Under the pieces are notes generated by a model that did no database searches, was not told where the DNA came from, and saw nothing but the letters and a program-made list of their open reading frames with translations. From NCBI RefSeq assembly GCF_056746865.1, contig NZ_JBWKMP010000004.1: a stretch of DNA of 64,000 nt, one strand, 5' to 3'. This document shows, piece by piece, positions 859-40,544 of the stretch. The stretch is from a plasmid. Every line of letters begins with the position of its first letter. The stretch's first letter is position 1. Made by a program: the position numbers and the translations under genes.

Positions 859-859
859 A

Positions 860-1250
860 AGTGACCTCTTCTGAATAATCCGGCCCGAACCGGAGGCATT
901 CGCACGCCTGAAGCCTGCCAGCGAACAAAAAATCAGCACCACATACAAAAAACAACCTCACTATCCACCTTCTGGAGCATCCGGTTCCCCCTGTTTTTAA
1001 TACAAAATGCGCCTCAGCGACGGGGAATTTTGCTTATCCACATTTAACTGCAAGGGACTTCCCCATAAGGTTACAACCGTTCATGTCATAAAGCGCCAGC
1101 CGCCAGTCTTACAGGGTGCAATGTATCTTTTAAACACCTGTTTATATCTCCTTTAAACTACTTAATTACATTCATTTAAAAAGAAAACCTATTCACTGCC
1201 TGTCCTGTGGACAGACAGATATGCACCTCCCACCGCAAGCGGCGGGCCCC
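860..1250. other. putative replication origin region (oriR) downstream of repA1
   Basis: positional inference from R100-type replicon organisation; AT-rich stretch near 1130-1190; not verified by motif search. Confidence 0.3.
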
Positions 1251-1796
1251 GACCGGAGCCACTTTAGTTACAACACACAAAAACAACCTCCAGAAAAACC
1301 CCGGTCCAGCGCAGAACCGAAACCACAAAGCCCCTCCCTCATAACTGAAAAGCGGCCCCGCCCCGGCCCAAAGGGCCGGAACAGAGTCGCTTTTAATTAT
1401 GAATGTTGTAACTACATCTTCATCGCTGTCAGTCTTCTCGCTGGAAGTTCTCAGTACACGCTCGTAAGCGGCCCTCACGGCCCGCTAACGCGGAGATACG
1501 CCCCGACTTCGGGTAAACCCTCGTCGGGACCACTCCGACCGCGCACAGAAGCTCTCTCATGGCTGAAAGCGGGTATGGTCTGGCAGGGCTGGGGATGGGT
1601 AAGGTGAAATCTATCAATCAGTACCGGCTTACGCCGGGCTTCGGCGGTTTTACTCCTGTATCATATGAAACAACAGAGTGCCGCCTTCCATGCCGCTGAT
1701 GCGGCATATCCTGGTAACGATATCTGAATTGTTATACATGTGTATATACGTGGTAATGACAAAAATAGGACAAGTTAAAAATTTACAGGCGATGCA

Positions 1797-2450
1797 ATGA
1801 TTCAAACACGTAATCAATATCTGCAGTTTATGCTGGTTATGCTGGCTGCATGGGGCATTAGTTGGGGAGCCAGATTTGTCATGGAGCAGGCCGTTCTGCT
1901 TTATGGATCAGGAAAAAACTATTTGTTCTTCAGTCATGGTACTGTTCTGATGTACCTGCTGTGTGTTTTCCTGGTATACCGCCGTTGGATAGCTCCGCTA
2001 CCGGTCGTTGGTCAGCTGCGCAACGTTGGCGTACCGTGGCTGGTCGGTGCGATGGCCGTGGTGTATGTCGGTGTATTTCTGCTCGGTAAGGCGCTGGCTC
2101 TGCCTGCTGAGCCATTTATGACGAAACTTTTTGCCGATAAGTCCATACCTGACGTGATCCTGACGTTGCTGACCATCTTTATCCTTGCCCCGTTGAATGA
2201 GGAAACGCTGTTCCGGGGGATTATGCTGAACGTCTTCCGTTCACGGTACTGCTGGACGATGTGGCTGGGGGCGCTGATAACGTCGTTGTTGTTCGTCGCC
2301 GCGCACAGCCAGTATCAGAACCTGCTGACACTGGCAGAACTGTTCCTGGTGGGGTTGATTACATCAGTGGCCAGGATCAGAAGTGGTGGCCTGCTGCTGC
2401 CGGTATTGCTGCATATGGAAGCAACCACGCTGGGTTTACTGTTTGGTTGA
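1797..2450 (+). CDS. CPBP-family intramembrane metalloprotease (CAAX protease-like)
   Basis: 217-aa hydrophobic ORF with EETLFRG motif typical of CPBP/Abi family; common neighbour of pemIK on IncF plasmids. Confidence 0.65.
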   Translation: MIQTRNQYLQFMLVMLAAWGISWGARFVMEQAVLLYGSGKNYLFFSHGTVLMYLLCVFLVYRRWIAPLPVVGQLRNVGVPWLVGAMAVVYVGVFLLGKALALPAEPFMTKLFADKSIPDVILTLLTIFILAPLNEETLFRGIMLNVFRSRYCWTMWLGALITSLLFVAAHSQYQNLLTLAELFLVGLITSVARIRSGGLLLPVLLHMEATTLGLLFG

Positions 2451-2542
2451 AAGTTATATTTTTATTAAACATTGTGCGTTAAAGCCTGGTGTGTTTTTTT
2501 AGTGGATGTTATATTTAAATATAACTTTTATGGAGGTGAAGA

Positions 2543-2800
2543 ATGCATACCACCCGACTGAAGAGGGTTGGCGGCTCAGTTATGCTGACCGTCCCACCGG
2601 CACTGCTGAATGCGCTGTCTCTGGGCACAGATAATGAAGTTGGCATGGTCATTGATAATGGCCGGCTGATTGTTGAGCCGTACAGACGCCCGCAATATTC
2701 ACTGGCTGAGCTACTGGCACAGTGTGATCCGAATGCTGAAATATCAGCTGAAGAACGAGAATGGCTGGATGCACCGGCGACTGGTCAGGAGGAAATCTGA
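2543..2800 (+). CDS. pemI: PemI antitoxin (MazE-like)
   Basis: 85-aa ORF MHTTRLKRVGGSVMLTVPPALL..., stop immediately before pemK start. Confidence 0.9.
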   Translation: MHTTRLKRVGGSVMLTVPPALLNALSLGTDNEVGMVIDNGRLIVEPYRRPQYSLAELLAQCDPNAEISAEEREWLDAPATGQEEI

Positions 2801-2801
2801 C

Positions 2802-3134
2802 ATGGAAAGAGGGGAAATCTGGCTTGTCTCGCTTGATCCTACCGCAGGTCATGAGCAGCAGGGAACGCGGCCGGTGCTGATTGTCACACCGGCGGCCTTT
2901 AATCGCGTGACCCGCCTGCCTGTTGTTGTGCCCGTAACCAGCGGAGGCAATTTTGCCCGCACTGCCGGCTTTGCGGTGTCGTTGGATGGTGTTGGCATAC
3001 GTACCACAGGTGTTGTACGTTGCGATCAACCCCGGACAATTGATATGAAAGCACGGGGCGGAAAACGACTCGAACGGGTTCCGGAGACTATCATGAACGA
3101 AGTTCTTGGCCGCCTGTCCACTATTCTGACTTGA
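2802..3134 (+). CDS. pemK: PemK toxin (MazF-like endoribonuclease)
   Basis: ATG at 2802 gives 110-aa MERGEIWLVSLDPTAGHEQQGTRPVLIV... ; track ORF 2670-3134 contains it in frame. Confidence 0.9.
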   Translation: MERGEIWLVSLDPTAGHEQQGTRPVLIVTPAAFNRVTRLPVVVPVTSGGNFARTAGFAVSLDGVGIRTTGVVRCDQPRTIDMKARGGKRLERVPETIMNEVLGRLSTILT

Positions 3135-3327
3135 ACATGGGGTTTGAGGGGCAACTGGATGAAAACGTACGATTTAGGGCACTAAAACCGCTGTTGTCCC
3201 ACCATTCTGGTGATTCCCAAACGTTATTTGGCTAAAAAGTAGTTTTGATGTGGTTTATTTTCCGAATTCCAAGCGCAGCCCTACTTTCTTGTGCGTATTT
3301 GCGTGTTTTGCGCAGTTTTGAAGTTCC

Positions 3328-3800
3328 GGTGATGCTGCCAACTTACTGATTTAGTGTATGATGGTGTTTTTGAGGTGCTCCAGTGGCTTCTGTTTCTATC
3401 AGCTGTCCCTCCTGTTCAGCTACTGACGGGGTGGTGCGTAACGGCAAAAGCACCGCCGGACATCAGCGCTATCTCTGCTCTCACTGCCGTAAAACATGGC
3501 AACTGCAGTTCACTTACACCGCTTCTCAACCCGGTACGCACCAGAAAATCATTGATATGGCCATGAATGGCGTTGGATGCCGGGCAACCGCCCGCATTAT
3601 GGGCGTTGGCCTCAACACGATTTTCCGCCATTTAAAAAACTCAGGCCGCAGTCGGTAACCTCGCGCATACAGCCGGGCAGTGACGTCATCGTCTGCGCGG
3701 AAATGGACGAACAGTGGGGATACGTCGGGGCTAAATCGCGCCAGCGCTGGCTGTTTTACGCGTATGACAGGCTCCGGAAGACGGTTGTTGCGCACGTATT
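3328..3800 (+). mobile_element. IS1, 5' portion (IRL + insA + start of insB), truncated
   Basis: begins GGTGATGCTGCCAACTTACTGAT (IS1 IRL); InsA ORF 3383-3658; ends where a Tn3-family IR begins at 3801. Confidence 0.85.
3383..3658 (+). CDS. insA: IS1 InsA
   Basis: 91-aa [43 protein letters not shown]... Confidence 0.85.
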
Positions 3801-4392
3801 GGGGTCTGACGCTCAGTGGAACGAAAACTCACGTTAAGCAACGTTTTCTGCCTCTGACGCCTCTTTTAATGGTCTCAGATGTCCTTTGGTCACCAGTTCT
3901 GCCAGCGTGAAGGAATAATGGCCGAGCATATTGATATGTCCGTGGCAAAGCGGGGAGAGGCGTGCGATATCTTCATCATTCAGTGTTTCACCCTGCGCCC
4001 GGAGATGATCCAGGGCTGCCTGCATATAAATAGTGTTCCATAACACGACGGCGTTAGTGACCAGCCCCAGTGCGCCCAGTTGATCTTCCTGACCGTCGGT
4101 ATATCGTTTTCTTATCTCACCTTTTTGACCGTGACAGATGGCTCTGGCAACGGCATGGCGACTTTCTCCCCGATTAAGCTGGGTCAGAATGCGCCGGCGG
4201 TAATCTTCATCATCAATATAATTAAGCAGATACAGCGTTTTGTTGATGCGCCCCACTTCAATGATTGCCTGAGTCAGTCCGGAAGGACGTTCACTTTTCA
4301 GCAATGAACGGACCAGCACTGAAGCCTGTACTTTGCCCAGCTTCAGGGAGCCAGCGGTCCGGATCATTTCGTCCCACTGAAGGACTATTTTT
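3801..4392 (-). mobile_element. Tn2/Tn3-type transposon end: 38-bp IR plus 3' end of tnpA, truncated by IS26
   Basis: GGGGTCTGACGCTCAGTGGAACGAAAACTCACGTTAAG at 3801-3838; minus-strand frame encodes TnpA C-terminus ...LAELVTKGHLRPLKEASEAENVA. Confidence 0.8.
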
Positions 4393-5212
4393 GGCACTGT
4401 TGCAAAGTTAGCGATGAGGCAGCCTTTTGTCTTATTCAAAGGCCTTACATTTCAAAAACTCTGCTTACCAGGCGCATTTCGCCCAGGGGATCACCATAAT
4501 AAAATGCTGAGGCCTGGCCTTTGCGTAGTGCACGCATCACCTCAATACCTTTGATGGTGGCGTAAGCCGTCTTCATGGATTTAAATCCCAGCGTGGCGCC
4601 GATTATCCGTTTCAGTTTGCCATGATCGCATTCAATCACGTTGTTCCGGTACTTAATCTGTCGGTGTTCAACGTCAGACGGGCACCGGCCTTCGCGTTTG
4701 AGCAGAGCAAGCGCGCGACCATAGGCGGGCGCTTTATCCGTGTTGATGAATCGCGGGATCTGCCACTTCTTCACGTTGTTGAGGATTTTACCCAGAAACC
4801 GGTATGCAGCTTTGCTGTTACGACGGGAGGAGAGATAAAAATCGACAGTGCGGCCCCGGCTGTCGACGGCCCGGTACAGATACGCCCAGCGGCCATTGAC
4901 CTTCACGTAGGTTTCATCCATGTGCCACGGGCAAAGATCGGAAGGGTTACGCCAGTACCAGCGCAGCCGTTTTTCCATTTCAGGCGCATAACGCTGAACC
5001 CAGCGGTAAATCGTGGAGTGATCGACATTCACTCCGCGTTCAGCCAGCATCTCCTGCAGCTCACGGTAACTGATGCCGTATTTGCAGTACCAGCGTACGG
5101 CCCACAGAATGATGTCACGCTGAAAATGCCGGCCTTTGAATGGGTTCATGTGCAGCTCCATCAGCAAAAGGGGATGATAAGTTTATCACCACCGACTATT
5201 TGCAACAGTGCC
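4393..5212 (-). mobile_element. IS26 (copy 1, 820 bp)
   Basis: 14-bp terminal IRs GGCACTGTTGCAAA at both ends; internal tnp26. Confidence 0.95.
4445..5149 (-). CDS. tnpA: IS26 transposase Tnp26
   Basis: 234-aa [31 protein letters not shown]... Confidence 0.95.
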   Translation of the reverse strand: MNPFKGRHFQRDIILWAVRWYCKYGISYRELQEMLAERGVNVDHSTIYRWVQRYAPEMEKRLRWYWRNPSDLCPWHMDETYVKVNGRWAYLYRAVDSRGRTVDFYLSSRRNSKAAYRFLGKILNNVKKWQIPRFINTDKAPAYGRALALLKREGRCPSDVEHRQIKYRNNVIECDHGKLKRIIGATLGFKSMKTAYATIKGIEVMRALRKGQASAFYYGDPLGEMRLVSRVFEM

Positions 5213-6297
5213 GCCGGCCCGAGATCATGGGGTGGGTGCTGGGCATCGTTTACCGCGTCATTGCCACGCACCTGGTCAAGAAAGCGGGCCATACCCACCA
5301 AGTGGCCAAGACGGGCGCGGTCACCCTGATCCAGCGTTTTGGATCGGCGCTCAATCTGAATGTTCACTTCCACATGCTGTTTCTCGACGGTGTGTATGTC
5401 GAGCAATCCCACGGCTCAGCGCGTTTCCGCTGGGTCAAGGCGCCGACCAGCCCAGAGCTCACCCAGCTGACGCACACCATCGCCCACCGGGTGGGTCGCT
5501 ATCTGGAACGGCAAGGCCTGCTGGAACGGGATGTCGAAAACAGCTATCTGGCCTCGGATGCGGTGGATGACGACCCGATGACACCCCTGCTGGGGCACTC
5601 GATCACTTACCGTATCGCTGTCGGTTCACAGGCGGGGCGAAAGGTGTTCACTTTGCAAACTCTGCCGACCAGTGGTGATCCGTTCGGTGACGGGATTGGC
5701 AAGGTAGCCGGGTCCAGCCTGCACGCCGGCGTGGCGGCCAGGGCCGATGAACGCAAGAAGCTCGAACGGCTGTGCCGGTACATCAGCCGCCCGGCGGTAT
5801 CCGAGAAGCGGCTGTCGTTAACACGAGGCGGCAACGTGCGCTACCAGCTCAAGACGCCGTACCGGGACGGCACCACGCACGTCATTTTCGAACCATTGGA
5901 TTTCATTGCAAGGCTGGCCGCCCTGGTACCGAAGCCCAGAGTCAACCTAACCCGCTTCCACGGGGTGTTCGCACCCAACAGTCGGCACCGGGCGTTGGTC
6001 ACGCCGGCAAAACGGGGCAGGGGCAACAAGGTCAGGGTGGCTGATGAACCGGCAACACCAGCACAACGGCGAGCGTCGATGACATGGGCGCAACGGCTCA
6101 AGCGTGTTTTCAATATCGACATCGAGACCTGCAGCGGCTGCGGCGGCGCCATGAAAGTCATCGCCTGCATTGAAGACCCTATAGTGATCAAGCAGATCCT
6201 TGATCACCTGAAGCACAAAGCCGAAACCAGCGGGACCAGGGCGTTACCCGAAAGCCGGGCGCCACCGGCTGAGCTGCTCCTGGGTCTGTTTGACTGA
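5213..6297 (+). pseudogene. ISCR2 (IS91-family rolling-circle) transposase, 5'-truncated by IS26
   Basis: frame continues from IS26 boundary; HMLFLDGVYV ... CSGCGGAMKVIACIEDPIVIKQILDHL matches ISCR2 transposase C-terminal portion from memory. Confidence 0.7.
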
Positions 6298-19489: not shown

Positions 19490-22126
19490 CTACAACGGCA
19501 GGGAGAACGAGGCGGTTTCGAGCGATTCTCCCTCATTCAGCCTGTTCTGCATGTCGCTGACGAAGGCATCCATCTGACTGTTGGCAAAGAATTTAATCCC
19601 GACCAGCCTGACGTCCTCATTTTCATCAATCACAATGCGCTCCCTGTCATTCAGCGTTTCCAGCATCTGCTCTTTCCATGCGTCATCCAGCAGCCGGTCA
19701 TCCCCCTTTGGCTCAAGGAACACCTGCCAGTAAGTGTTGTCCGAATGGCGCGTCAGTATCATGATGAAATCCGGCATAAACCCGCGCACGCCGCCGAACT
19801 CCGTGAGTTTAAAGCGCGTTGACTGCTCGTCGTTACGCAGTACGTAAATGTCGTCGTAACGCGCTTTCAGCTTCGGCATGAATGCTTCCAGCGTTTTCAC
19901 AAGGCGATGCTCAAGCTGGTTCAGTATCGCGTTATCGTACACGTACCATTTTTTACCGATGGTCGGTGCGGTGGTGATTTTCTGGTTAATGACCACCGAC
20001 GGGTCAATGTGCAGGCTGTAGTCTTTAATCACCTCCTTCACCGGCTGGCTGATAAAGCGGTACGTGCCTTTCACCTTCTGGTCATTGCGGCGTATGTTCT
20101 CTGAGATGCGCAGCAGCACAGTTTCCAGCAGGTGCAGTTTCTCTTTTGCCGGTACAGAGGAGAAATCCAGTGACTGCGGTACGGTGACGGTGATTTTTAG
20201 CTTGCCAAGATAGGCGTCACTGCGAATAAACTCACGGATGCCGGTCAGTTTCGGGAAGAAGCGTTGCAGGTTATCCAGCGCGTAGAAGCTGATCCTCTGC
20301 ATCGCCTTGCGGTAAAAACGCTCGTCCAGTACCAGGGGTTCCGGTTTTGTTATGACTGCCGTTGCGCCCGTCAGGTTGTCCAGCGACTCCTCACCGGCGG
20401 TCTGATACGGTATCTCAAAGCGTGTTTCCAGCGAGTAGGTTTCCCAGCGCCGGCTGCTGCTCTCAATCTCTTCCACTTTGTTGAAATACAGCTTACCCGT
20501 CTGATAGACCGTGGATTTCTTGAAGTCTTCTTTCAGTCTGGCGTGTTCAATCGTGCCGCTGCCATCCTGATGCACGTCAATGTCCGCCTGCTCTAATGAT
20601 GCGTGCAGCGTTTTTATATAAGCTGGTTCATTGATGGTGTGATAGTGCAGTTGCTCCAGCACACTCAAATCTTTCGCGCTGTTATCAAACCGGCGGGTGA
20701 AGCTGCGCTTACCGTCATAAACGAACGGGTAGTAACGCGCACCACGCCCGATAAGCTGCGCCTCGCTGTCCGTGCCGGTTTTGCTGCTGCTCGCCTGCTC
20801 GCTGATGCGGACAATGTCGTAGAGGTTGAGCACGTCCCAGCCTTCGTTGACCTTCGCCACGGCAAAGACGGCTCTCACCGGATTATCGATGTTTTCCAGT
20901 GTGTTCAGCAGGACGGGGTTTTCTTCCAGCAGGTCTGACTTGTTGACGTTCAGCAGGTTGAAGTCGTTAAAGTCTTCCTGAATCTGTTGGATAACCGTCA
21001 CTAAATCGCTGTCAGCGTAACGCTGAATCACTTTGTGCCAGATACTGGTGTCAGAGCTGAGCTGTACTCTTTTGTTCGCCAGGTGGCGTCTGACGCTCTC
21101 AGGCGTCATTGCCGCAATCAGTTGCGAAAACTCCTCCTGCTTCGCCTTTGATATCGCAATCTTGTTCGACTTGAACAGAATGACCGGCTTGAAGCCGGTG
21201 ATGCCGTTATCTGCTGCTGTCAGTTTACGGTACTGGCTTAACAGTACCGCATCGAGCATCTTGTCACCGTCATTCTGGTTGGCTTCCAGCAGCATGACTT
21301 TCTTCGAATAGCCGTCTGACATGAACTGCTTCAGGTCATACTGATAAACCACTTTGTCACGGTATTTTTGCCCGATATCTTTATTTGCCAGGTCAATGGT
21401 GGCGGTGAACTCGAACAGCCGGTTATCCGGTCGCAGGTCGAGGATGTTCTCAATCGTGCGTTCCCAGGTCTGCTCCTCGTTCTCCGGTGAGGTTTTCGAC
21501 TTTCCTCTGGCTTTGGTGCCGGCGTTGAAGTGATGCGCCTCGTCACCAAGCAGCACAAGCGGAATTTCCTTCAAATCCTCGTAGGTGATGCTGTTCTCAC
21601 GATAGCTGTTCAGCTCATCGTGCATCTTATGGATGGTTGAGAGCTTAAGGTAAATCGTGTTGCGTTCCGGTACGGACGGGAACGTCTCCACCGGTGCGAT
21701 GGTGATTTTTTCCCCGTCGATTTCCAGCTCCTGACTGAACAGGTACTTCGGCGACTGCGGATTCAGCAGGTTCTCACGGGTTTTCTGGATAATCGCGTCG
21801 GTATGCACGAAGAAGATAAAATTCTGATACCCGTACTCTTTAAACAGATAGAGTATCGTCCCCGCCATCACCATCGTTTTCCCTGCACCGGTTGCCATGT
21901 GAAACAGCAGATGACGGTAATGCAGCAGCGCCTCTTCACGTTTACGCTGCGTGTAATGCAGGTAACGCAGTGCACCGTGCTGATACGGACGCAGGGCATC
22001 CTTCAGATTCGCCTGAATGTAGTCCGGCGTCTGGTAGTTATCGTGGAACAGCCCCGGTTCATCAAATTGCTTCAGCTTGTTAAACAGCAGCTTCTCGCTG
22101 CCGGCTGAGGTCGGTTTCTTCGCCAT
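19490..22126 (-). CDS. res: Type III restriction endonuclease subunit Res (SF2 helicase + nuclease)
   Basis: 878-aa ORF with Walker A (MATGAGKTMV), DEAH box (LLGDEAHH); 4 bp downstream of mod. Confidence 0.85.
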   Translation of the reverse strand: MAKKPTSAGSEKLLFNKLKQFDEPGLFHDNYQTPDYIQANLKDALRPYQHGALRYLHYTQRKREEALLHYRHLLFHMATGAGKTMVMAGTILYLFKEYGYQNFIFFVHTDAIIQKTRENLLNPQSPKYLFSQELEIDGEKITIAPVETFPSVPERNTIYLKLSTIHKMHDELNSYRENSITYEDLKEIPLVLLGDEAHHFNAGTKARGKSKTSPENEEQTWERTIENILDLRPDNRLFEFTATIDLANKDIGQKYRDKVVYQYDLKQFMSDGYSKKVMLLEANQNDGDKMLDAVLLSQYRKLTAADNGITGFKPVILFKSNKIAISKAKQEEFSQLIAAMTPESVRRHLANKRVQLSSDTSIWHKVIQRYADSDLVTVIQQIQEDFNDFNLLNVNKSDLLEENPVLLNTLENIDNPVRAVFAVAKVNEGWDVLNLYDIVRISEQASSSKTGTDSEAQLIGRGARYYPFVYDGKRSFTRRFDNSAKDLSVLEQLHYHTINEPAYIKTLHASLEQADIDVHQDGSGTIEHARLKEDFKKSTVYQTGKLYFNKVEEIESSSRRWETYSLETRFEIPYQTAGEESLDNLTGATAVITKPEPLVLDERFYRKAMQRISFYALDNLQRFFPKLTGIREFIRSDAYLGKLKITVTVPQSLDFSSVPAKEKLHLLETVLLRISENIRRNDQKVKGTYRFISQPVKEVIKDYSLHIDPSVVINQKITTAPTIGKKWYVYDNAILNQLEHRLVKTLEAFMPKLKARYDDIYVLRNDEQSTRFKLTEFGGVRGFMPDFIMILTRHSDNTYWQVFLEPKGDDRLLDDAWKEQMLETLNDRERIVIDENEDVRLVGIKFFANSQMDAFVSDMQNRLNEGESLETASFSLPL

Positions 22127-22130
22127 GCCG

Positions 22131-24179
22131 TCACTCCATTCCGTAGAAGCTGCGGGTAAAGGCTTTATCGCTCTCTGAAATGTTCAGGTCACTGTCATCC
22201 ATATCGGAAGCGTTCACATAGAGCTGATTTTTATCGAGGATTTCAATCAGCAGTTGCTTCTGCTCATGCAGTTCCAGTTCGCTGAAGGCGACTTTACGGA
22301 AAATACCATCCACTTCGTACTCAGCCGACAGCACGTTCTCCAGTGCCACCTGATAGTTGAGATGTGCCTCTGTTTTCATCACGGCAAAGAGCTTTTCGAG
22401 TTCTTCAGTGGACTGCGCTTTCTGTATTTCATGCACAAAGTAGGCGTTCAGCTCCATCAGTTCAGCGTAGACAAAGCTGCCGCCACCCTGCCAGTTGATG
22501 TCTTTTGAGATCCCCCCCTGTTCACCTCCGATGACTTTTTGCAGGCGTGGTACCGTTATGTCGTTGATGTAATCCATCTGTTCAATACCAATGTAGCGAC
22601 GCCCCATCTTATGGGCTACTGCTGCGGTTGTTCCGCTACCTAAATGAAAGTCTAAGATTAAATCGCCTGCCTTTGTAGATAGCTCTATGACCCTTTTAAT
22701 TAACAACTCTGGTTTCTTTCCGTTTTCGAAACTTACATATCCACCTTCTTTATTTAAATTGTTATATTGGATGTCATCCCATAAGGTATTTATTTTCTGC
22801 ATGTAGTTATAACTTTCACCATTTTTCTCCAGCATGTCGGATAGGAACATAAACATATCTTTATTGCTGGCGTTGTAGAATATTTCAACTGGCGTTCCTT
22901 TGTTTTTCCCTTTTAATGGTGTGTACTCTACGCTAACAATGCCATTATTTATTTCTTCTAGTTCTTTTAGAACTCGGCCTCTGACACTGGATTGTGCATT
23001 TGTTGTTCTATAAACAATCCCTGCATAGTCTTTATATACGTCGTTTTCACTTATGCCTTTTTCTTTTGAAAATCTAGATATGGAGGTGGTTTTGGCATAG
23101 GGGTAGTGATTGTAAGTAACTCCATCTTCACTTTTTATGGGCGTTTTTGCACCTAAATCTAAGAGTATTTGAGTGTATTTCCAGCTCTTACCGCTATCCT
23201 TGTATTCATTTACATACTGAATTACCTCTGTTTTTTTGAAAACAGGGTTAAGCATGGCAAGTTCTTTTCTTTTCGAATATAAAATTATAAATTCAGTTGC
23301 ATCTCTTAAGCTTTTTCCTTCCGAGCTTCCAGATACACCACCTATCTTTGTTTTTATTGTTATAATATTGATGAAGTTTTCTACACCAAATATGTTATCC
23401 ATTAACACCTTCAAATGGAATAACTCGTTATCATCACATTGTATAAAAATAAACCCATCATCTGATAATAATTTAAGTGATGTTTCAAGCCTATTTTTCA
23501 TGAATGTTAACCACGTGGAGTGGTTAAATCTATCATTATATTTAAAGCTATCGGAACCAGTGTTATATGGAGGGTCAATATATATTAACTTTACCTCGCC
23601 TTTATGGGGGGTTATTAATGAATTAAGGGCAATTAAGTTATTTCCTTTGATGATTAAATTATCACTTTGATCAAAGTAAGATATATTGTTTTGTGCACCA
23701 TTTTTTGTATGTCGTTTAACATTAGTGAATACCTTTGGAGAGAAAAGTCGATCAATCTCATCACGAGCAATGATTTCATTGTAATAAATCTCATCTTTCC
23801 CCTGATTTTCTTTGGTCATTCCGCCTTCAAGAACACAATCCTTAAAAGGAAAGTCCAGCACCACATCAGAGCTGTAATCAAGGTATTTCCCTTCACTGGT
23901 TAATCCCACCTTGTTCCGGTATTTAGTGAAGCTGTTCGCCCAGTATTCTTTGTATTTAAGAAATTTGCATAAATTATCAAAATCAAAAATAAAAATTCCG
24001 TCTATATCCGTACCGTAAACAGCGCGGATTTTTTCATTCGCCACCAATGCCTTGATAAGGTCTGGCTGCTTTTGACTGATAGCGTCACTCACCATTGAAC
24101 GTTGTAATTCCTCTCCGTTCCAGAACTGCGGGAATGCTTTTAAAACCTTGTTAAGTTCTTTTATTAATTCTGTCTGCAT
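22131..24179 (-). CDS. mod: Type III DNA methyltransferase subunit Mod
   Basis: 682-aa ORF with DPPYN motif (LIYIDPPYNTGSD) and C-terminal AdoMet motif (FHLGSGTTAAVA); strongly AT-rich central segment (likely target-recognition domain). Confidence 0.85.
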   Translation of the reverse strand: MQTELIKELNKVLKAFPQFWNGEELQRSMVSDAISQKQPDLIKALVANEKIRAVYGTDIDGIFIFDFDNLCKFLKYKEYWANSFTKYRNKVGLTSEGKYLDYSSDVVLDFPFKDCVLEGGMTKENQGKDEIYYNEIIARDEIDRLFSPKVFTNVKRHTKNGAQNNISYFDQSDNLIIKGNNLIALNSLITPHKGEVKLIYIDPPYNTGSDSFKYNDRFNHSTWLTFMKNRLETSLKLLSDDGFIFIQCDDNELFHLKVLMDNIFGVENFINIITIKTKIGGVSGSSEGKSLRDATEFIILYSKRKELAMLNPVFKKTEVIQYVNEYKDSGKSWKYTQILLDLGAKTPIKSEDGVTYNHYPYAKTTSISRFSKEKGISENDVYKDYAGIVYRTTNAQSSVRGRVLKELEEINNGIVSVEYTPLKGKNKGTPVEIFYNASNKDMFMFLSDMLEKNGESYNYMQKINTLWDDIQYNNLNKEGGYVSFENGKKPELLIKRVIELSTKAGDLILDFHLGSGTTAAVAHKMGRRYIGIEQMDYINDITVPRLQKVIGGEQGGISKDINWQGGGSFVYAELMELNAYFVHEIQKAQSTEELEKLFAVMKTEAHLNYQVALENVLSAEYEVDGIFRKVAFSELELHEQKQLLIEILDKNQLYVNASDMDDSDLNISESDKAFTRSFYGME

Positions 24180-27782: not shown

Positions 27783-28022
27783 TCAGAACCGTCCGTATTT
27801 AGCTAAAATTTTCTCTAGCGTGGCTCGTTGTTTTTGGGTCAGCCATGTAAATGAGTCGTTGAGATCGTGCTTGCTTTGCATATCGCTTAGAAATTTAGCC
27901 TCAAAGCTAGTGAGCTGGATTTTTGCGGTCAGTGCATCGTGTAGTGTCTTTTTAAGACCGTTATGCAATTGACTGTCTTGCGTGCTGTTTGTCACCGGAA
28001 TGGGCGTTCTTGTTGTTTTTTC
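27783..28022 (-). pseudogene. 3' end of an unidentified gene truncated by IS26
   Basis: frame runs into the IS26 IR at 28023 without a start codon; ends ...QKQRATLEKILAKYGRF. Confidence 0.35.
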
Positions 28023-28842
28023 GGCACTGTTGCAAATAGTCGGTGGTGATAAACTTATCATCCCCTTTTGCTGATGGAGCTGCACATGAACCCATTCAAA
28101 GGCCGGCATTTTCAGCGTGACATCATTCTGTGGGCCGTACGCTGGTACTGCAAATACGGCATCAGTTACCGTGAGCTGCAGGAGATGCTGGCTGAACGCG
28201 GAGTGAATGTCGATCACTCCACGATTTACCGCTGGGTTCAGCGTTATGCGCCTGAAATGGAAAAACGGCTGCGCTGGTACTGGCGTAACCCTTCCGATCT
28301 TTGCCCGTGGCACATGGATGAAACCTACGTGAAGGTCAATGGCCGCTGGGCGTATCTGTACCGGGCCGTCGACAGCCGGGGCCGCACTGTCGATTTTTAT
28401 CTCTCCTCCCGTCGTAACAGCAAAGCTGCATACCGGTTTCTGGGTAAAATCCTCAACAACGTGAAGAAGTGGCAGATCCCGCGATTCATCAACACGGATA
28501 AAGCGCCCGCCTATGGTCGCGCGCTTGCTCTGCTCAAACGCGAAGGCCGGTGCCCGTCTGACGTTGAACACCGACAGATTAAGTACCGGAACAACGTGAT
28601 TGAATGCGATCATGGCAAACTGAAACGGATAATCGGCGCCACGCTGGGATTTAAATCCATGAAGACGGCTTACGCCACCATCAAAGGTATTGAGGTGATG
28701 CGTGCACTACGCAAAGGCCAGGCCTCAGCATTTTATTATGGTGATCCCCTGGGCGAAATGCGCCTGGTAAGCAGAGTTTTTGAAATGTAAGGCCTTTGAA
28801 TAAGACAAAAGGCTGCCTCATCGCTAACTTTGCAACAGTGCC
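28023..28842 (+). mobile_element. IS26 (copy 2)
   Basis: 820 bp with GGCACTGTTGCAAA IRs. Confidence 0.95.
28086..28790 (+). CDS. tnpA: IS26 transposase Tnp26
   Basis: 234-aa [10 protein letters not shown]... Confidence 0.95.
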   Translation: MNPFKGRHFQRDIILWAVRWYCKYGISYRELQEMLAERGVNVDHSTIYRWVQRYAPEMEKRLRWYWRNPSDLCPWHMDETYVKVNGRWAYLYRAVDSRGRTVDFYLSSRRNSKAAYRFLGKILNNVKKWQIPRFINTDKAPAYGRALALLKREGRCPSDVEHRQIKYRNNVIECDHGKLKRIIGATLGFKSMKTAYATIKGIEVMRALRKGQASAFYYGDPLGEMRLVSRVFEM

Positions 28843-31017: not shown

Positions 31018-31339
31018 GACTTTTCCTCCCGTTATCAAACCCTGTTGTAAACTGTGATCGGCGACGCATCCCCTCCCGGCCTCACCTCATCACCGGCTAA
31101 AAAGCGCATTTTTTGCGTTTAGCCTGCCATCGGAAACCTGCGCCTCGCCACACTAATCCCCGCTCTATGTTACCCCTTTTTTGAAATCATTTAGCAATCC
31201 AATAACATTTCATCCCCCCGGAAAAAGCGGGCTAAAAATCGCCTTATTGAAGACCAAATCAGCACCGACATTACAGCATAAAGACATAAATAAACGCCCT
31301 AAAAAGACTAAATCACAGAGCTATATCCTAAATAATTAC

Positions 31340-32900
<1,561 letters not shown>

Positions 32901-33681: not shown

Positions 33682-34611
<930 letters not shown>

Positions 34612-34926: not shown

Positions 34927-35746
34927 GGCACTGTTGCAAAGTTAGCGATGAGGCAGCCTTTTGTCTTATTCAAAGGCCTTACATTTCAAAAACTCTGCTT
35001 ACCAGGCGCATTTCGCCCAGGGGATCACCATAATAAAATGCTGAGGCCTGGCCTTTGCGTAGTGCACGCATCACCTCAATACCTTTGATGGTGGCGTAAG
35101 CCGTCTTCATGGATTTAAATCCCAGCGTGGCGCCGATTATCCGTTTCAGTTTGCCATGATCGCATTCAATCACGTTGTTCCGGTACTTAATCTGTCGGTG
35201 TTCAACGTCAGACGGGCACCGGCCTTCGCGTTTGAGCAGAGCAAGCGCGCGACCATAGGCGGGCGCTTTATCCGTGTTGATGAATCGCGGGATCTGCCAC
35301 TTCTTCACGTTGTTGAGGATTTTACCCAGAAACCGGTATGCAGCTTTGCTGTTACGACGGGAGGAGAGATAAAAATCGACAGTGCGGCCCCGGCTGTCGA
35401 CGGCCCGGTACAGATACGCCCAGCGGCCATTGACCTTCACGTAGGTTTCATCCATGTGCCACGGGCAAAGATCGGAAGGGTTACGCCAGTACCAGCGCAG
35501 CCGTTTTTCCATTTCAGGCGCATAACGCTGAACCCAGCGGTAAATCGTGGAGTGATCGACATTCACTCCGCGTTCAGCCAGCATCTCCTGCAGCTCACGG
35601 TAACTGATGCCGTATTTGCAGTACCAGCGTACGGCCCACAGAATGATGTCACGCTGAAAATGCCGGCCTTTGAATGGGTTCATGTGCAGCTCCATCAGCA
35701 AAAGGGGATGATAAGTTTATCACCACCGACTATTTGCAACAGTGCC
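34927..35746 (-). mobile_element. IS26 (copy 4)
   Basis: 820 bp with IS26 IRs. Confidence 0.95.
34979..35683 (-). CDS. tnpA: IS26 transposase Tnp26
   Basis: 234-aa [10 protein letters not shown]... Confidence 0.95.
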
Positions 35747-35829
35747 TCTCAAAATCGGTGGAGCTGCATGACAAAGTCATCGGGCATTATCTGAACATAA
35801 AACACTATCAATAAGTTGGAGTCATTACC
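35747..35829 (+). mobile_element. IS1, 3' terminal 83 bp (end of insB + IRR)
   Basis: TCTCAAAATCGGTGGAGCTGCATGACAAAGTCATCGGGCATTATCTGAACATAAAACACTATCAATAAGTTGGAGTCATTACC matches IS1 right end. Confidence 0.8.
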
Positions 35830-36330
35830 AAACAGGGATTATTTATTCTCTCAGGCGAGAATAAAATAGACGAAGAATGTTTCATTAATATAGTCCAAAC
35901 GGCTGTCGCCATAAATAACATCGGTAGAGAATCTAATGGTTATATTTTAGTTGGTGTTTCCGATACCAAAGCTACGGCAGACAGAGTTAAGACTTTATAT
36001 GGTGTTACCCCTATTGAGTGCAATGGCTATTATATCAATGGAATTGATCATGAAGCTGTAATTCAATCAAAAAACATAGATAATTACTTTCTGTTCATAA
36101 AACAAAAAATAGAATCATTTAATTTTAATGAGGCTTTGAAACAACAAATACTAAAAGATATTTCATTATGTTCATATGAAGGACTGCATGTTTTAAAAAT
36201 CGAAATAAAAAGTGTCGGAGAAGTCTGTCATTTTGAAAATAGGTATTATATAAGACAAGGAACAGCTACGCATTTAATCACTGACGGTGAAGCAATTAGT
36301 AGTTTACACAGATTATATTACTCATAATTA
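35813..36330 (+). pseudogene. fragment of a gene encoding an AlbA_2/Schlafen-like (divergent AAA) domain protein, N-terminally truncated at the IS1 end
   Basis: open frame with no ATG until late; motif NGYILVGVSDTKATADRV resembles the GGxLxxGVxDxG core of AlbA_2 domains; AT-rich. Confidence 0.3.
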
Positions 36331-37371
36331 CTTAAGCACTATGAAGGTATCATACACCTTCATAGTGTACTTTTTTACTGCGCTTTGGGGCTAAATTGTT
36401 TTTGTGAATAGCCAGAATATCGTGGCTACGGCGGCAATGGAAATATATGATCTCTGCTGCCAGAGACTGGAGATGTAATTGGGGGCAGTTTGGATATCGA
36501 AAATTATTGTACTATAAGGGGTCCGCTTGAGGGGGCCGCTTGGAAAACGGAAATTTTCCCACGCTAAGAGAATTGAGTTGAACGAGTGGTTACATCTAGG
36601 CCAGCTAACTCACTGAACGTAAAGGCTGTACGAAATGTTCCGACCGTCCGATAACCATTTGGCTTACTTCCGTACATTTCCTTGCGTAGATGTACAGAAT
36701 TGTACGATTTCGGACACCAAAACTGCTGTTGTCCCGGTGCATGAAGCTACTTTCCGGGTTGGTGGTACTGACTTTGGTGTTCTTAACGACGACGTTTTCA
36801 ACTCTGAAAATCGCCTCTCTGCACGGGGATTTTTACCCCCCCATAGAGCCGTCATATAAATTCAAATTATTAACTTTGATGGTAGAATTATCTTAGGTTT
36901 GATAAAATTTTGAGCCGTCGCCGTTTACTTCACAGGATTCAATATAATGGCTAAATATACAGTTTGTGATTACCAATAAACTATTAGAAATAATGGGAAT
37001 GGTTGTGCCAATCTCTATCTGGAGGTCTTATTGCAGGGAACATCCACCCCATCGTTACACCAATACAGAATTGCCCCCGATACAAGACATCCAGACATTA
37101 ACCTAATAAAAGCGCACCTTGACGAGGGCTTTCAGCAGGCAAAGTCTGAGGGATTAAAAGTAGAGATTTCAGATTATAAAGAACGTCTTTACCTGTACAT
37201 TAGAACACCTGGTAATAACCTAATGCAATATTCTGGTTGCAGAGAAAAATAATACAGTCGCGCTGGATACGCTGACATTGACGCAGTTATATGATTTTCT
37301 GGCGTTGGTCAGTAAACCAGCTGCAGCCAAAACGGTGTAGTCCCTGACACAGGCGCCGGTCATTCTGTTAA

Positions 37372-37497
37372 CTCATCCACGTATGGGATGAACAGTTGTT
37401 TCAGTTTGAAACCAGGGATGTCAGACGGATTTTTGCTGGCGAGTACGAAATCCGTTACGAACTTAATGGCCAGACTATTTATGTATTGCGCCTGTGA
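37372..37497 (+). pseudogene. RelE/ParE-like toxin C-terminal remnant
   Basis: LIHVWDEQLFQFETRDVRRIFAGEYEIRYELNGQTIYVLRL resembles the C-terminal beta-strands of RelE/ParE toxins; in-frame stop immediately upstream. Confidence 0.3.
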
Positions 37498-37624
37498 CAC
37501 ACACGAGAAAACAGGTAGATTGTGTGTGAGGGCAACTTTAACATAGCCTGCAGGTGTTAATTCAGGAGCATTGTTATCAGACCAAATATTTTTCATTCCA
37601 TTAAATAGTCTTGTAGGGGATAAA

Positions 37625-37906
37625 ATGAATTACGATGAAATAACGAAAATCACTGCAGAACGTATTAGCGACTACATGACTGAAGCGGTTAATACAGACT
37701 CTAAATCTGTTGCGGAAATGTTTCATAACGCTGCATGGGGAGTGCTATCATTGTGGTTTGAACTCGTCACAAAAATAGATCTGGATATACATAAAAAGAA
37801 CAGGTATGCAAGTTATGATTTTAGAAGAAAAATCGAAATGCAGCATGAAGAGTTTCAGAAAATGACAGAGCGTGAGCAAGTGCCTTTATTGAAATTGCCT
37901 GAATAA
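37625..37906 (+). CDS. hypothetical protein (93 aa)
   Basis: ATG at 37625 within track ORF 37571-37906 ([22 protein letters not shown]...). Confidence 0.35.
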
Positions 37907-38028
37907 CAGAGACAGTGCAAACGATTATTTCATAATAACGATTATGTAATGACTGGTAAGAAAATAACTTGATTGAGTTCCCTTTATCCAGCCTGATAGT
38001 GGATAAAGGGAACTCAATAATAATTGAA

Positions 38029-38382
38029 TTAATTTATTAGCTTCATCGCATTTTTTTTGGTCTCTTCATCACTTTTTTGCTCTTGTTGTGAAGAGGATTG
38101 AGTGACTATTGAAGAATTAAAATCGGCCATCTCTTTTGGAAATAGCGATCTCAATATATTCACGATATCTGAAAATGTGGTTTCTTTCGTCAGCAGCTCA
38201 CATAAAAGGAAAGGGGTCCGGGGATCTTGTCTGTATAAGGCCAGACCTGCCGTCAGTGCGGCCCGGTTAAGGCGGCTTCGTTCCCCTTGCGGGATACTGT
38301 CCAGTGTATCACAAACAATTTTATCTGTTTGATTTACATCTGGATTTAGTTTGAAGGCAATGGTTCTGCGCTTGTCCATCAT
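38029..38382 (-). CDS. parR: plasmid partition adaptor ParR (StbB)
   Basis: 117-aa [46 protein letters not shown]... ; directly after parM. Confidence 0.85.
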   Translation of the reverse strand: MMDKRRTIAFKLNPDVNQTDKIVCDTLDSIPQGERSRLNRAALTAGLALYRQDPRTPFLLCELLTKETTFSDIVNILRSLFPKEMADFNSSIVTQSSSQQEQKSDEETKKNAMKLIN

Positions 38383-39344
38383 TAATTACCTATGAGATAC
38401 ATACCGTTAACTAAATCATATTGAGAGTTATTGGTTTTGAAAAAACGTTCATCACGAATCTGTGTGTGTTTTTTTACTGCATCGCATATTAATTCTGCGC
38501 CACCGCCTATAACCATAACATGAGTATAACCAGAAAATTCATTGAGCGTATTTAATACACGTTGCTCAAGTTTACGAAGTGCTTCATTCATTGCTTCGGT
38601 GACTATTGATATTTTGTTCTCATCATTAATTCGTTGCTTCAGATAGTTATTATCTTTTCTGTGAATGATTATATCGTCAGCAAGATAGCTACTTCCTTTT
38701 GTTCTCGCAAGAGAAAGGGCATCTTTTACTGCAGATGTAACCAGAGAGACACCAAGAGATGAGTCTCCGTATATTTTACTGATCCCCGATAATTTCCCCA
38801 TTACCTGAGAAATATCTAATGTGGTGCCCCCGAGATCTATAATTAATAAAGAATCTAACTCATCCAGTTCTTGTAGAACTTCATAACCTGCCGGTATAGA
38901 TTCAGGCATGACTTTTACATCTTTTATTGTGAATGTATCCCCGCCATTTAATGTAATTTTTTTCCGGAAGTTTGCTTTCTTACGCTCAATATTTTCCGTA
39001 TTGGGTTGGTTATTTCTGTCGTAATACTCTGTCAGAGGAAGTGTGCAAACAATATCCACTTCGCTTACCGGCAGACCACTGGTCAGTAAGGCGTGATGCA
39101 CTGCAACGACATTAACGTCGCTGTATTGCCATGCGATATTGGTTGTGACTACAGCATCCGGGCTGATTGGATCAAATGAATACTGTTCGCCGTTCAGTGT
39201 GTAGTTAAAGACCTTTTTATCACCAAAAGAGACTGCCCACTCGCGTTTGAAGCTGTTCGGGCTAATGTGCTGTTTAATTGTTCCGTCGCTTTCCTGCCAC
39301 TGTAGTTTGATGTTTGTTGAACCGTCATCAATGAATACCAACAT
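38382..39344 (-). CDS. parM: actin-like segregation ATPase ParM (StbA)
   Basis: 320-aa [40 protein letters not shown]... matches R1/R100 ParM. Confidence 0.9.
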
Positions 39345-39535
39345 TTATAAAACTCCTTATGGTGTTTTTTTGGTGTGTGTTTGGGTATGTTTTGGGTTTT
39401 AAGTGGGTTTGTTTGTCAAGTTTACCCCATTTCAACCATCAATCAATGATTATTTGTCTTGTTTTGGTGTTTTATTGGGTTGGGTATGGGTTGTTTTTGG
39501 GTTTTGTTTGGCGGGTAACAAAAGATGTCGCCGGG
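39345..39535 (-). promoter_or_regulatory. parC: parC centromere/promoter region with short direct repeats
   Basis: GT-rich reiterated motifs (GTTTTGGGTTTT, GGGTTGGGTATGGGTTGTTTTTGGGTTTTG) immediately upstream of parM. Confidence 0.5.
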
Positions 39536-39860
39536 CTCCTCTTTTTACTGCGCCGGCTGACGCGGCGCGGCAGGAACGCTGCCTGTGGTCAGTGTCCCGC
39601 GTCCGGCCGGGCACGGGACGGGCGCTTTTACCGCTCCCGGCTGGCGTTGGTGACAGTGTACGCCAGCCCGTCGCCCTTTTCTGATGAACGCCCTTCAAGC
39701 CGCTTTCGCGGCATATCCTCGCCGTCAAAAAGACGACGGCTGCGGTATTCCACGGTCGGCCTGACCCGTTACCGGACGCGGTGAACAGCCCACAGGCAGC
39801 GGGGAACGGGCACCACAGGGGTGCCCTCCCGGTGCCCTCTGTAAGAGAAGGAGTGCTGTT

Positions 39861-40544
39861 ATGTCCCGTTTTATCCTGGGTGACTGCGTGCGTGTTATGG
39901 CCACGTTTCCGGGCAATGCTGTCGATTTCATCCTCACCGACCCGCCGTATCTCGTCGGTTTCCGTGACCGTTCCGGGCGCACCATCGCCGGCGATAAAAC
40001 CGATGAATGGCTGCAACCAGCCTGTAATGAAATGTACCGCGTACTCAAAAAAGACGCGTTAATGGTGAGCTTCTATGGCTGGAACCGCGTCGATCGCTTT
40101 ATGGCCGCCTGGAAAAATGCGGGATTCAGCGTTGTTGGTCACCTGGTCTTCACCAAAAACTACACATCGAAGGCCGCATATGTGGGCTATCGCCACGAAT
40201 GTGCCTACATCCTGGCAAAAGGCCGTCCACGTCTGCCACAAAACCCGCTGCCGGACGTGCTGGGCTGGAAATATTCGGGCAATCGCCATCACCCGACGGA
40301 AAAGCCCGTTACCAGCCTGCAACCGCTGATTGAGAGCTTCACACACCCGAACGCAATTGTGCTGGACCCGTTTGCAGGCAGCGGCTCAACCTGCGTCGCC
40401 GCCCTCCAGTCCGGACGCCGGTATATCGGTATCGAGCTGCTTGAGCAGTATCACCGTGCCGGGCAGCAACGCCTTGCCGCCGTGCAACGGGCCATGCAGC
40501 AGGGGGCCGCGAATGATGACTGGTTTATGCCGGAGGCTGCGTAA
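39861..40544 (+). CDS. orphan DNA N6-adenine/N4-cytosine methyltransferase (leading region)
   Basis: 227-aa ORF with DPPY motif (FILTDPPYLVGF) and AdoMet-binding motif (DPFAGSGSTCVAA). Confidence 0.8.
   Translation: MSRFILGDCVRVMATFPGNAVDFILTDPPYLVGFRDRSGRTIAGDKTDEWLQPACNEMYRVLKKDALMVSFYGWNRVDRFMAAWKNAGFSVVGHLVFTKNYTSKAAYVGYRHECAYILAKGRPRLPQNPLPDVLGWKYSGNRHHPTEKPVTSLQPLIESFTHPNAIVLDPFAGSGSTCVAALQSGRRYIGIELLEQYHRAGQQRLAAVQRAMQQGAANDDWFMPEAA

Follow-up and report, generated by a model that had tools for sequence, protein, structure and literature searches.

Remnants of a GmrSD_N/AlbA_2 gene and of a parE toxin gene in the plasmid backbone between IS1 and parR

The interval studied here (35813-37906) lies in a stretch of 64,000 nucleotides of plasmid DNA (contig NZ_JBWKMP010000004.1; hereafter, the window) from the lineage of FII-33-type plasmids with blaCTX-M-55. 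Its left flank consists of an IS1 end and an IS26. The IS26 copy (34927-35746, minus strand; 99.9% match to IS26 of L004; Tnp26 ORF at 34979-35701) truncates the IS1, of which an 83-bp right end is left (35747-35829, plus strand). This remnant ends in ...GGAGTCATTACC, matches the terminus of IS1b of Tn2670 in R100 without a difference (100% identity) and is labelled 'IS1 family transposase, partial' by NCBI in an identical plasmid. The open reading frames of parR/stbB (38029-38382) and parM/stbA (38382-39344), both on the minus strand, form the right-hand landmark. The first-pass annotation, made from the sequence alone, had described this backbone as carrying gene remnants near 35813 and 37372, and both features exist at about these coordinates.

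The first remnant is the 3' end of a larger gene. On the plus strand, a reading frame is open from 35815 to a TAA codon at 36325-36327 (171 codons); its first 15 nt belong to the IS1 terminal repeat and true gene sequence begins at 35830. The frame had been proposed to span 35813-36330 without a start: it is indeed open and startless, but 35813 is 2 nt out of frame. Its AT-richness (30.9% G+C) and its motif NGYILVGVSD were both confirmed. The remnant proper (35830-36327) comprises codons 426-590 and the stop codon of a 590-aa GmrSD_N(DUF262)/AlbA_2 gene, as indicated by tblastn (100% identity to residues 426-590 of the intact protein), Pfam, invariant columns and a fold match. The Pfam domain SLFN_AlbA_2 (PF04326) was found in the fragment with 29.0 bits (E = 1.7e-6), and both the fragment and the intact protein exceed the gathering threshold of 25.3 bits; NCBIfam returned no match for the fragments or for the intact proteins. 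Together with the fold match of the C-terminal domain model, the Pfam match supports the AlbA_2/Schlafen assignment made from the sequence. Just past the stop codon lies an intrinsic-terminator-like hairpin with a 13-bp stem and a T-run (36336-36368, plus strand).

Rather than being decayed, this fragment is a cleanly cut 3' piece of the gene and matches the intact allele at 100% identity. The earlier description of decayed genes holds for the broken parE remnant described below but not for the AlbA_2 piece, which was truncated by the insertion of IS1/Tn2670. No ATG, GTG or TTG occurs in the frame upstream of the TTG at 36136 (codon 108). The fragment begins at K426 and is devoid of the conserved first strand of the AlbA_2-like domain (E419..Y423-D-F); with the invariant E419, Y423 and F425 missing, a complete, translatable domain is not present in the window. 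Because the start codon is lacking and the domain is incomplete, the fragment would not be expected to give a functional product. Alternatively, it could encode a functional stand-alone protein of about 147-168 aa, translated either through an IS-derived signal or from a start codon that is non-canonical, and kept for its usefulness. The length of the open frame, its 100% conservation in about 1,000 plasmid records and the presence of most of the AlbA_2-like domain speak for such a protein, as do NCBI and older annotations that call a CDS. These annotated starts are, however, non-canonical ATT codons, the invariant strand and the whole sensor half are missing, the dead parE next door is equally well conserved and promoter-like sites are no commoner than in shuffled sequence. 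Perfect conservation is in any case expected because the segment stems from R100/NR1, which carried Tn2670 by the 1950s (PMC8765060). We consider a functional stand-alone protein highly improbable.

The intact 590-aa protein presents a GmrSD_N/DUF262 NTPase domain, a helical middle domain and a C-terminal AlbA_2/Schlafen-like domain. Its gene is whole in about 8% of related plasmids, among them pEC00688_3, p33673_IncF and M11 plasmid C, where it directly follows pemK every time; the protein is represented by WP_001262766/7 from M11 plasmid C or pEC00688_3. Pfam yielded 70.9 bits for GmrSD_N and 27.8 bits for AlbA_2; PADLOC matched the N-terminal part only (NsnA, 75.8 bits; PD-T4-2_A, 65.3 bits), and no PADLOC model spans the whole protein. 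PDB matches to a sequence profile of the C-terminal domain were confined to an unrelated YtvA STAS stretch (E = 3e-4), with no AlbA_2 entries among them; a fold search was therefore needed. The best fold match of the C-terminal domain model (pLDDT 94) was 3LMM (E = 1e-4, probability 1.0, TM 0.50), with further matches to the N'-domain of SLFN13 (5YD0; E = 0.03) and to 2KYY (E = 0.05); we take 3LMM and 2KYY to be AlbA_2 entries. The full-length model (pLDDT 87) matched the folds of BrxU, SspE and ParB. Among the invariant residues of the C-terminal part are E419, K426, E500 and R567.

The protein belongs to a conserved family of more than 1,400 homologues. Its homologues travel in P2-like prophages, as single cargo genes inserted at variable loci. 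On plasmids the gene lies next to pemK and non-coding DNA, whereas in prophages it is surrounded by phage structural genes. PHROG 26759 was matched over the full length, and GenBank phage records presented no full-length homologue but N-terminal DUF262 matches only, so that the phage link of the family rests on the prophage contexts and on PHROG 26759. Literature searches returned no paper combining 'DUF262' and 'AlbA_2', none combining 'DUF262', 'P2-like' and 'hotspot', and nothing relevant in a broader search for AlbA_2 plus anti-phage. The Menshen system (NsnABC) was also considered and rejected: the NsnA match covers residues 10-341, but no NsnB or NsnC neighbours accompany it. Domain homology and genomic context suggest that the ancestor was most likely a single-protein, GmrSD/BrxU-like, nucleic-acid-sensing defence enzyme. 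Since its homologues are single-gene prophage cargo, a defence role is supported for the ancestor and not for the fragment. These results agree with the initial reading of the remnants as former defence or addiction functions, ParE being a toxin-antitoxin toxin.

Comparison with R100 indicates how the gene was interrupted. In R100, the 9-bp sequence AAACAGGGA is found to the left of IS1a and to the right of IS1b, and a single copy is present in the uninterrupted gene of pEC00688_3, so that a direct duplication of the target flanks the composite transposon Tn2670. The N-terminal 425 codons of the 590-aa gene are fused to IS1a in R100. Only the right copy of the duplication survives in the window (35830-35838, plus strand), where its AAA is codon K426. 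The left IS1 of the window (from 3328) adjoins backbone 92 bp upstream of the start of the 590-aa gene; therefore, 1,366 bp are missing, and the N-terminal GmrSD_N domain is absent from the window (tblastn recovered residues 426-590 only). The resistance region of FII-33 plasmids is known to derive from Tn2670 of NR1, acquired together with adjacent backbone (PMC8765060).

Downstream of the terminator-like hairpin lies a probable truncated miniature element of the Tn3 family (TIME/MITE; 36517-36736, plus strand) with the inverted repeat (IR) pattern GGGG...ACGCTAAG. Its 38-bp IR occupies 36531-36568, and a 13-bp copy of the tip of this IR lies ahead of it, at 36517-36529. From the IR onwards (36531-36736), 206 of 287 bp are left and the right IR is lost; the full 287-bp element with both IRs is found at L008:5001-5287, and copies occur in many plasmids. 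It is followed by orf101 (36947-37252, plus strand), a putative ORFan whose homologues are near-identical plasmid copies only, without any Pfam or PHROG match. Its codon 11 is TAA (36977-36979) both here and in R100 and is TCA in M11 plasmid C of E. coli. An antitoxin remnant in orf73 (37031-37252) was rejected, as this frame has no Pfam support and is the C-terminal part of orf101.

The second remnant is a pseudogene of parE, a toxin gene of the RelE/ParE family (37278-37518, plus strand), which corresponds to nt 37-276 of the intact 276-nt gene; the protein-level alignment of NCBI begins at 37263. It carries three lesions: CAG>TAG at 37338-37340, an additional T at 37389 and TGG>TGA at 37495-37497. 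The original stop codon is at 37516-37518, and neither a start codon nor an antitoxin gene is left. The first-pass annotation had placed a ParE fragment at 37372-37497, which encodes ...EYEIRYELNGQTIYVLRL. The family is correct, but the remnant is longer, and this 41-aa piece alone scores 15.1 bits against ParE_toxin (PF05016), below the gathering threshold of 23 bits. Read across the lesions, the remnant reaches 43.1 bits (E = 6.4e-11), relative to 61.4 bits for an intact relative, and its DNA is about 92-94% identical to intact parE genes. NCBI annotates it in an identical plasmid as 'RelE/ParE family toxin; frameshifted; internal stop'. The remnant offers no uninterrupted ORF with a start codon, and no cognate antitoxin was found immediately upstream of it, where the ORF has no Pfam match. 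The fragment is unreadable and would not be expected to give a functional product. In pO157-type plasmids, an intact RHH antitoxin (RHH_1, 43 bits) and ParE are both present. M11 plasmid C is colinear with the window over 35830-40481 (98.3%) and carries the same three lesions, which implies that the decay of parE predates Tn2670.

The comparison with related IncF backbones, proposed at the outset as a check, thus retrieved both an intact 590-aa gene and an intact parE. It also bears on the possibility that the likenesses to AlbA_2 and ParE arose by chance in non-coding AT-rich DNA. The AlbA_2 score exceeds its threshold by only about 4 bits and the 41-aa ParE piece falls below its own, as chance would allow. 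This explanation has next to no probability and is refuted by the parE alignment, by the 100% match to the end of the 590-aa protein and by the size of that family; the fold search provides independent support. With 100% identity to R100 over the entire interval, the features lie far beyond chance.

The last ORF of the interval, orf93 (37625-37906, plus strand), looks intact, so the picture of decayed genes does not extend over the whole of 35813-37906. Its homologues in Salmonella, Citrobacter and Dickeya are exactly 93 aa long, down to about 60% identity, and relative to 92%-identical alleles the ratio of synonymous to non-synonymous codon changes is about 1:1. We did not accept the label 'partial' given by NCBI, since the homologues are consistently 93 aa long; the gene is probably still alive. 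Between the convergent orf93 and parR, a long inverted repeat (37969-38020) likely represents a bidirectional terminator, judging from its sequence.

These structures raise the question of whether the remnant DNA is kept for a cis-acting role, for example as a terminator or insulator that separates parMR from the resistance region, or through a site in the miniature element at which recombination or resolution takes place. The strong terminator-like hairpin and the long inverted repeat would fit such a role; the boundary of the TIME also coincides with the divergence points of related plasmids, and TIMEs can bear res-like sites (PMC13367494). However, the hairpin is simply part of the truncated gene, and no Rfam family was found in 35500-38500, where the sole match was a chance miRNA-hairpin (E = 0.9) at 37969-38020. 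Nothing ties parMR function to the DNA of the interval, since in the par locus of R1/R100 parC is situated beyond parM, and most of the interval is absent from other F plasmids. A cis-acting role is likewise highly improbable.

R100/NR1 is 100% identical to the window across all of 35813-37906; the R100 counterpart (NC_002134.1, 21976-24069) flanks IS1b of Tn2670. The interval is thus very probably an R100/NR1-type IncFII backbone in which two distinct rearrangements have left inert debris and one gene is probably alive. Both remnants are long-standing, already annotated in public records and an ordinary feature of such plasmids; the first-pass reading was essentially right.

We propose three steps for their origin. 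The oldest, suggested by comparison, would start from the layout of pO157-type plasmids: repA, RHH antitoxin, parE, orf93 and parR-parM. A 386-bp piece that held the antitoxin gene together with roughly 12 codons from the start of parE would have been replaced by 4,438 bp that brought a CAAX protease gene, pemI-pemK, the 590-aa GmrSD_N/AlbA_2 gene, the Tn3-type miniature element and orf101. The direction of this exchange is suggested by the truncated parE, and its right breakpoint can be placed only roughly, within 37240-37277. Without its head and partner, parE would then have gained two nonsense codons and a frameshift. The next two steps can be read from the sequences themselves. In the R100/NR1 lineage, the IS1-flanked Tn2670 entered the 590-aa gene at codon 426, with duplication of AAACAGGGA, and so cut off the C-terminal AlbA_2/Schlafen-like domain from the part responsible for NTPase and DNA-binding functions. 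The lineage of the window then lost the 5' part of the gene with the 92 bp upstream, beside the left IS1, and IS26 trimmed the right IS1 to 83 bp.

The remnants matter little in themselves, as they are inert scars in a plasmid backbone that is among the most heavily sequenced. Their main use is to mark lineages, by way of the IS1 junction, the 9-bp duplication and the three lesions of parE. They also record the swap of an addiction module, from parDE to a pemIK-bearing segment, and the landing of a resistance transposon in a probable defence gene; together, they illustrate how cargo turnover shapes IncF backbones. Tentatively, the ancestor may represent an uncharacterised single-gene defence family (ParB-DUF262 NTPase, helical DNA-binding and AlbA_2/Schlafen-like domains) shared by P2-like prophages and IncF plasmids, and the insertion that founded R100 may have destroyed a plasmid-borne immunity gene, a reading that we rate just short of an even chance. 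If so, only the 8% or so of related plasmids would still keep this immunity gene whole. The intact protein is a plausible stand-alone defence candidate, and its plasmid alleles are readily available for cloning.

Several known systems resemble these elements. GmrSD, BrxU and SspE combine a ParB-DUF262 NTPase, a helical DNA-binding domain and a DUF1524 nuclease. The intact ancestor shares with them a GmrSD_N domain whose DGMQR (DGQQR-like) motif includes D71, Q74 and R75, an NsnA-like middle region, fold matches (BrxU, 7P9K; SspE, 6JIV), a single-polypeptide architecture and a status as mobile-element cargo. In contrast, its AlbA_2/Schlafen-like domain fills the C-terminal place of DUF1524, and no match to the DUF1524 His-Me finger nuclease was found in the intact protein. 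Relative to SLFN_AlbA_2 domains (N-terminal domains of RecG-like/DIP2311 proteins; Schlafen core), the fragment exceeds the HMM threshold and the structural matches are those given above, but the sequences share only 8-17% identity, and none of the catalytic residues could be equated.

The 287-bp element resembles Tn3-derived TIMEs in its 38-bp Tn3-family IRs, its lack of a transposase and its wide spread in enterobacterial plasmids, whereas the copy in the window is reduced to 206 bp and a single IR. R100 and the window share the IS1 junction, the 9-bp target sequence, the parE lesions and the orf101 nonsense codon; R100 keeps the N-terminal 425 codons beside IS1a as well as a complete IS1b, whereas the window has lost the 5' part and, of IS1, retains no more than an 83-bp end truncated by IS26. 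Finally, pO157-type and other IncF plasmids carry CopG/RHH-ParE toxin-antitoxin pairs (e.g., WP_001178089/WP_000421248) downstream of repA. The remnant is 92-94% identical to their toxin gene and is followed by the same orf93, but its antitoxin gene is gone, as are its first ~12 codons, and it carries two nonsense codons and one frameshift. Unlike in CopG/RHH-ParE backbones, the addiction role in the window-type backbone is now held by pemIK.

Window 35813-37906 is 100% identical to positions 21976-24069 of R100/NR1 (NC_002134.1), and the same perfect identity is found in hundreds of other IncF and related plasmids. In R100, the interval lies between stbB/parR and the end of IS1b, which bounds the resistance determinant Tn2670 on the right. 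Only the last 83 bp of this IS1 (35747-35829) remain in the window because the element is cut by a copy of IS26 (34927-35746). The gene blaCTX-M-55 (33682-34557) lies immediately upstream of the interval, between the last two IS26 copies, and the repA-pemIK end of the backbone occupies 1-3327. The identity to R100, the IS1/IS26 layout, blaCTX-M-55 and the repA-pemIK end together identify the window as an FII-33-type plasmid. The resistance region of FII-33 is described as derived from Tn2670 of NR1 and as having come with adjacent backbone by homologous recombination (PMC8765060). In the window, this region is structured by four full copies of IS26 (4392-5214, 28022-28842, 31339-32159 and 34927-35746) and one partial copy (17829-18060), and its left IS1 (3328-3838 locus) breaks off at 3800, where a 38-bp inverted repeat of Tn2/Tn3 type (3801-3838) truncates it.

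The first-pass annotation described decayed genes in this interval, among them a frame without a start codon at 35813-36330 that resembled the AlbA_2/Schlafen family. This frame begins to be open at 35815 and closes with a TAA at 36325-36327; it includes the motif NGYILVGVSD, presents a G+C content of 30.9% and contains no ATG, GTG or TTG before 36136. Its family assignment was confirmed by Pfam (SLFN_AlbA_2; 29.0 bits, E 1.7e-6; threshold 25.3) and by the fold of the domain. A tblastn search of plasmids revealed that, in a few records, the same sequence closes a longer gene of 1,773 bp, which is annotated "DUF262 domain-containing protein" and is always directly downstream of pemI-pemK. The frame corresponds to residues 426-590 of the encoded 590-aa protein with 100% identity, and the rest of this protein is encoded nowhere else in the window.

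The uninterrupted gene reads ...GATTTT AAACAGGGA TTATTT... at the target site. In R100, the left side reads ...GATTTT AAACAGGGA followed by the left end of IS1a, and the right side presents the right end of IS1b followed by AAACAGGGA TTATTT.... These sequences show AAACAGGGA to be the 9-bp target duplication of the IS1-bounded transposon, which places the insertion of Tn2670 exactly at codon K426. The left IS1 of the window (from 3328) adjoins the backbone 92 bp upstream of the start codon of the 590-aa gene; another 1,366 bp, made up of the upstream region and the 425 N-terminal codons, are deleted, and the left duplicate is also gone. It is this backbone deletion, adjoining the left IS1, that took the 5' part of the 590-aa (GmrSD_N/AlbA_2) gene. 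Of the 1,405 plasmid records containing any part of a 300-bp probe across the target site, 116 have it uninterrupted; the 5' part of the gene is kept in 628 plasmid records and the 3' part in 1,036. The perfect match to residues 426-590, together with the insertion of Tn2670 and the deletion, shows truncation rather than mutational decay: the frame is the effector-position domain of a GmrSD-like protein, which Tn2670 severed from the rest.

Decay does describe the second fragment, a piece at 37372-37497 that had been ascribed to RelE/ParE toxins. This 41-aa piece alone scores 15.1 bits, under the ParE_toxin threshold, and the remnant read across its lesions reaches 43.1 bits, which confirms the family. 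The remnant (37278-37518) covers nt 37-276 when aligned with the toxin gene, the protein-level alignment of NCBI starting at 37263, and in an identical plasmid the NCBI pipeline already labels this locus a RelE/ParE pseudogene, frameshifted and internally stopped. Many IncF plasmids, those of pO157 type among them, possess intact relatives downstream of repA, where a 94-aa CopG/RHH antitoxin (RHH_1, 43 bits) overlaps a 91-aa ParE toxin (ParE_toxin, 61.4 bits). Relative to the intact allele, the remnant has lost the start codon and the first ~12 codons, and presents CAG>TAG at 37338, an inserted T at 37389 and TGG>TGA at 37495-37497.

Homology with pO157-type plasmids starts at repA, stops at a left breakpoint and is found again within parE. 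Between these points, the pO157-type plasmid possesses 386 bp (L006:1715-2100) with the whole antitoxin gene and the start of the toxin gene, where the R100-type backbone possesses 4,438 bp (L018:1661-6098) with a CAAX-type protease gene, pemI-pemK, the 590-aa gene, a miniature element and orf101. The right junction falls at about window 37263-37278, and neither repeats nor site-specific signatures were seen at the junctions. This replacement looks like a toxin-antitoxin swap: we infer that the event bringing pemIK decapitated parDE, after which the parE remnant would have drifted. Plasmid C of E. coli M11 (NZ_CP010209), an R100-type backbone without Tn2670 that is colinear with window 35830-40481 (98.3%), carries the intact 590-aa gene and the same three parE lesions; the decay of parE is therefore older than the insertion of Tn2670. 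The proposal of pseudogenised defence or addiction functions is supported by the domains and prophage context of the GmrSD-like ancestor and by the ParE toxin remnant, with the refinement that the latter is the scar of the proposed swap.

Three further features of the interval are a miniature transposon that is broken, an ORFan with a nonsense codon and one probably live gene. Directly after the stop codon of the 590-aa gene lies a terminator-like hairpin (36336-36368; 13-bp stem and T-run). A 38-bp Tn3-family inverted repeat, GGGG...ACGCTAAG (36531-36568), opens a 206-bp segment (to 36736) matching a 287-bp element of pRM10466-1, whose full copy (L008:5001-5287) has two such repeats and no ORF. 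We consider this segment a truncated Tn3-family TIME/MITE on the basis of this structure; a 13-bp duplicate of the repeat tip precedes it, the two together occupying 36517-36736, and related plasmids part from the window at its boundary. At least 80% of the 287-bp element is present in 570 plasmid records, unannotated in all, and it could not be assigned to a named TIME such as IMU, IS101, MITESen1 or TIME244. In pRM10466-1, an 8-bp unit (GTTATCTT; L008:4880-4945) is repeated about eight times in tandem between a ParA-type partition operon, which lies just upstream of the repeats, and the full TIME copy; the repeats may represent a centromere-like array. The putative 101-aa ORFan orf101 (36947-37252) presents TAA at codon 11 in the window and R100 and TCA in M11 plasmid C, where it is intact; no homologue beyond near-identical plasmid copies was found among 5.8 billion proteins. 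Finally, orf93 (37625-37906) always follows parE, and its homologues on plasmids of Salmonella, Citrobacter and Dickeya keep a length of exactly 93 aa even at ~60% identity, so we did not retain the NCBI label "partial, missing C-terminus". Moderate constraint is suggested by how its synonymous changes compare in number with the non-synonymous ones, and orf93 is probably a complete, live small gene. No Rfam family matched anywhere in the interval.

All these features belong to a backbone for which thousands of sequences exist, and some of them are annotated already; the sole forward-looking lead is the intact 590-aa family, a candidate single-gene defence gene. The family comprises >1,400 homologues, most of ~590 aa and many with both Pfam domains, from Enterobacterales to Vibrio, Burkholderia, Chromobacterium and Planctomycetes. 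Homologues are single-gene cargo of P2-like prophages (L015-L017, 8001-9773; L019-L020, 7001-8776; L013, 8001-9776) and occupy two distinct variable positions: in Serratia (78% identical) the site flanked by the portal gene and the replication gene gpA, and the site between baseplate gene V and tail-completion gene S in Enterobacter and Cronobacter (68-69% identical). These sites are variable "moron" positions of P2-like phages, home of anti-phage genes such as old and tin. A Vibrio homologue lies inside an island that is bounded by an integrase and also holds phage repressor and replicase genes, and a Chromobacterium copy is an isolated insertion amid housekeeping genes. A 246-aa gene without Pfam match adjoins the homologue in Serratia prophages. 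No conserved partner gene was found across these contexts, and this cargo setting lends support, short of proof, to a stand-alone defence function of the ancestor.

The 590-aa protein contains GmrSD_N (DUF262; residues 26-165, 70.9 bits) and AlbA_2 (residues 420-573, 27.8 bits), and PHROG 26759 matches it full-length (252 bits). Two PADLOC models match only its N-terminal part: Menshen NsnA, over residues 10-341 (75.8 bits), and PD-T4-2_A (65.3 bits). An alignment of 37 sequences revealed an invariant DG(M)QR NTP-binding-type motif (D71, G72, Q74, R75) and, in the C-terminal domain, invariant E419, Y423, F425, K426, N455, E500 and R567. The whole-protein AlphaFold model (pLDDT 87) is closest to BrxU (7P9K), SspE (6JIV) and ParB N-domains; that of residues 400-590 (pLDDT 94) is closest to 3LMM (E 1e-4, probability 1.0) and also resembles the SLFN13 N'-domain (E 0.03) and 2KYY (E 0.05). 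ParB-DUF262 proteins occur in the GmrSD, BrxU, SspE, Menshen, Dazbog and PD-T4-2 defence systems (PMC10952713, PMC12065111), and the literature searched made no mention of DUF262 together with AlbA_2. The Pfam domains and fold matches therefore indicate an overall architecture like that of GmrSD/BrxU, except that the DUF1524 nuclease is replaced by an AlbA_2/Schlafen-like domain.
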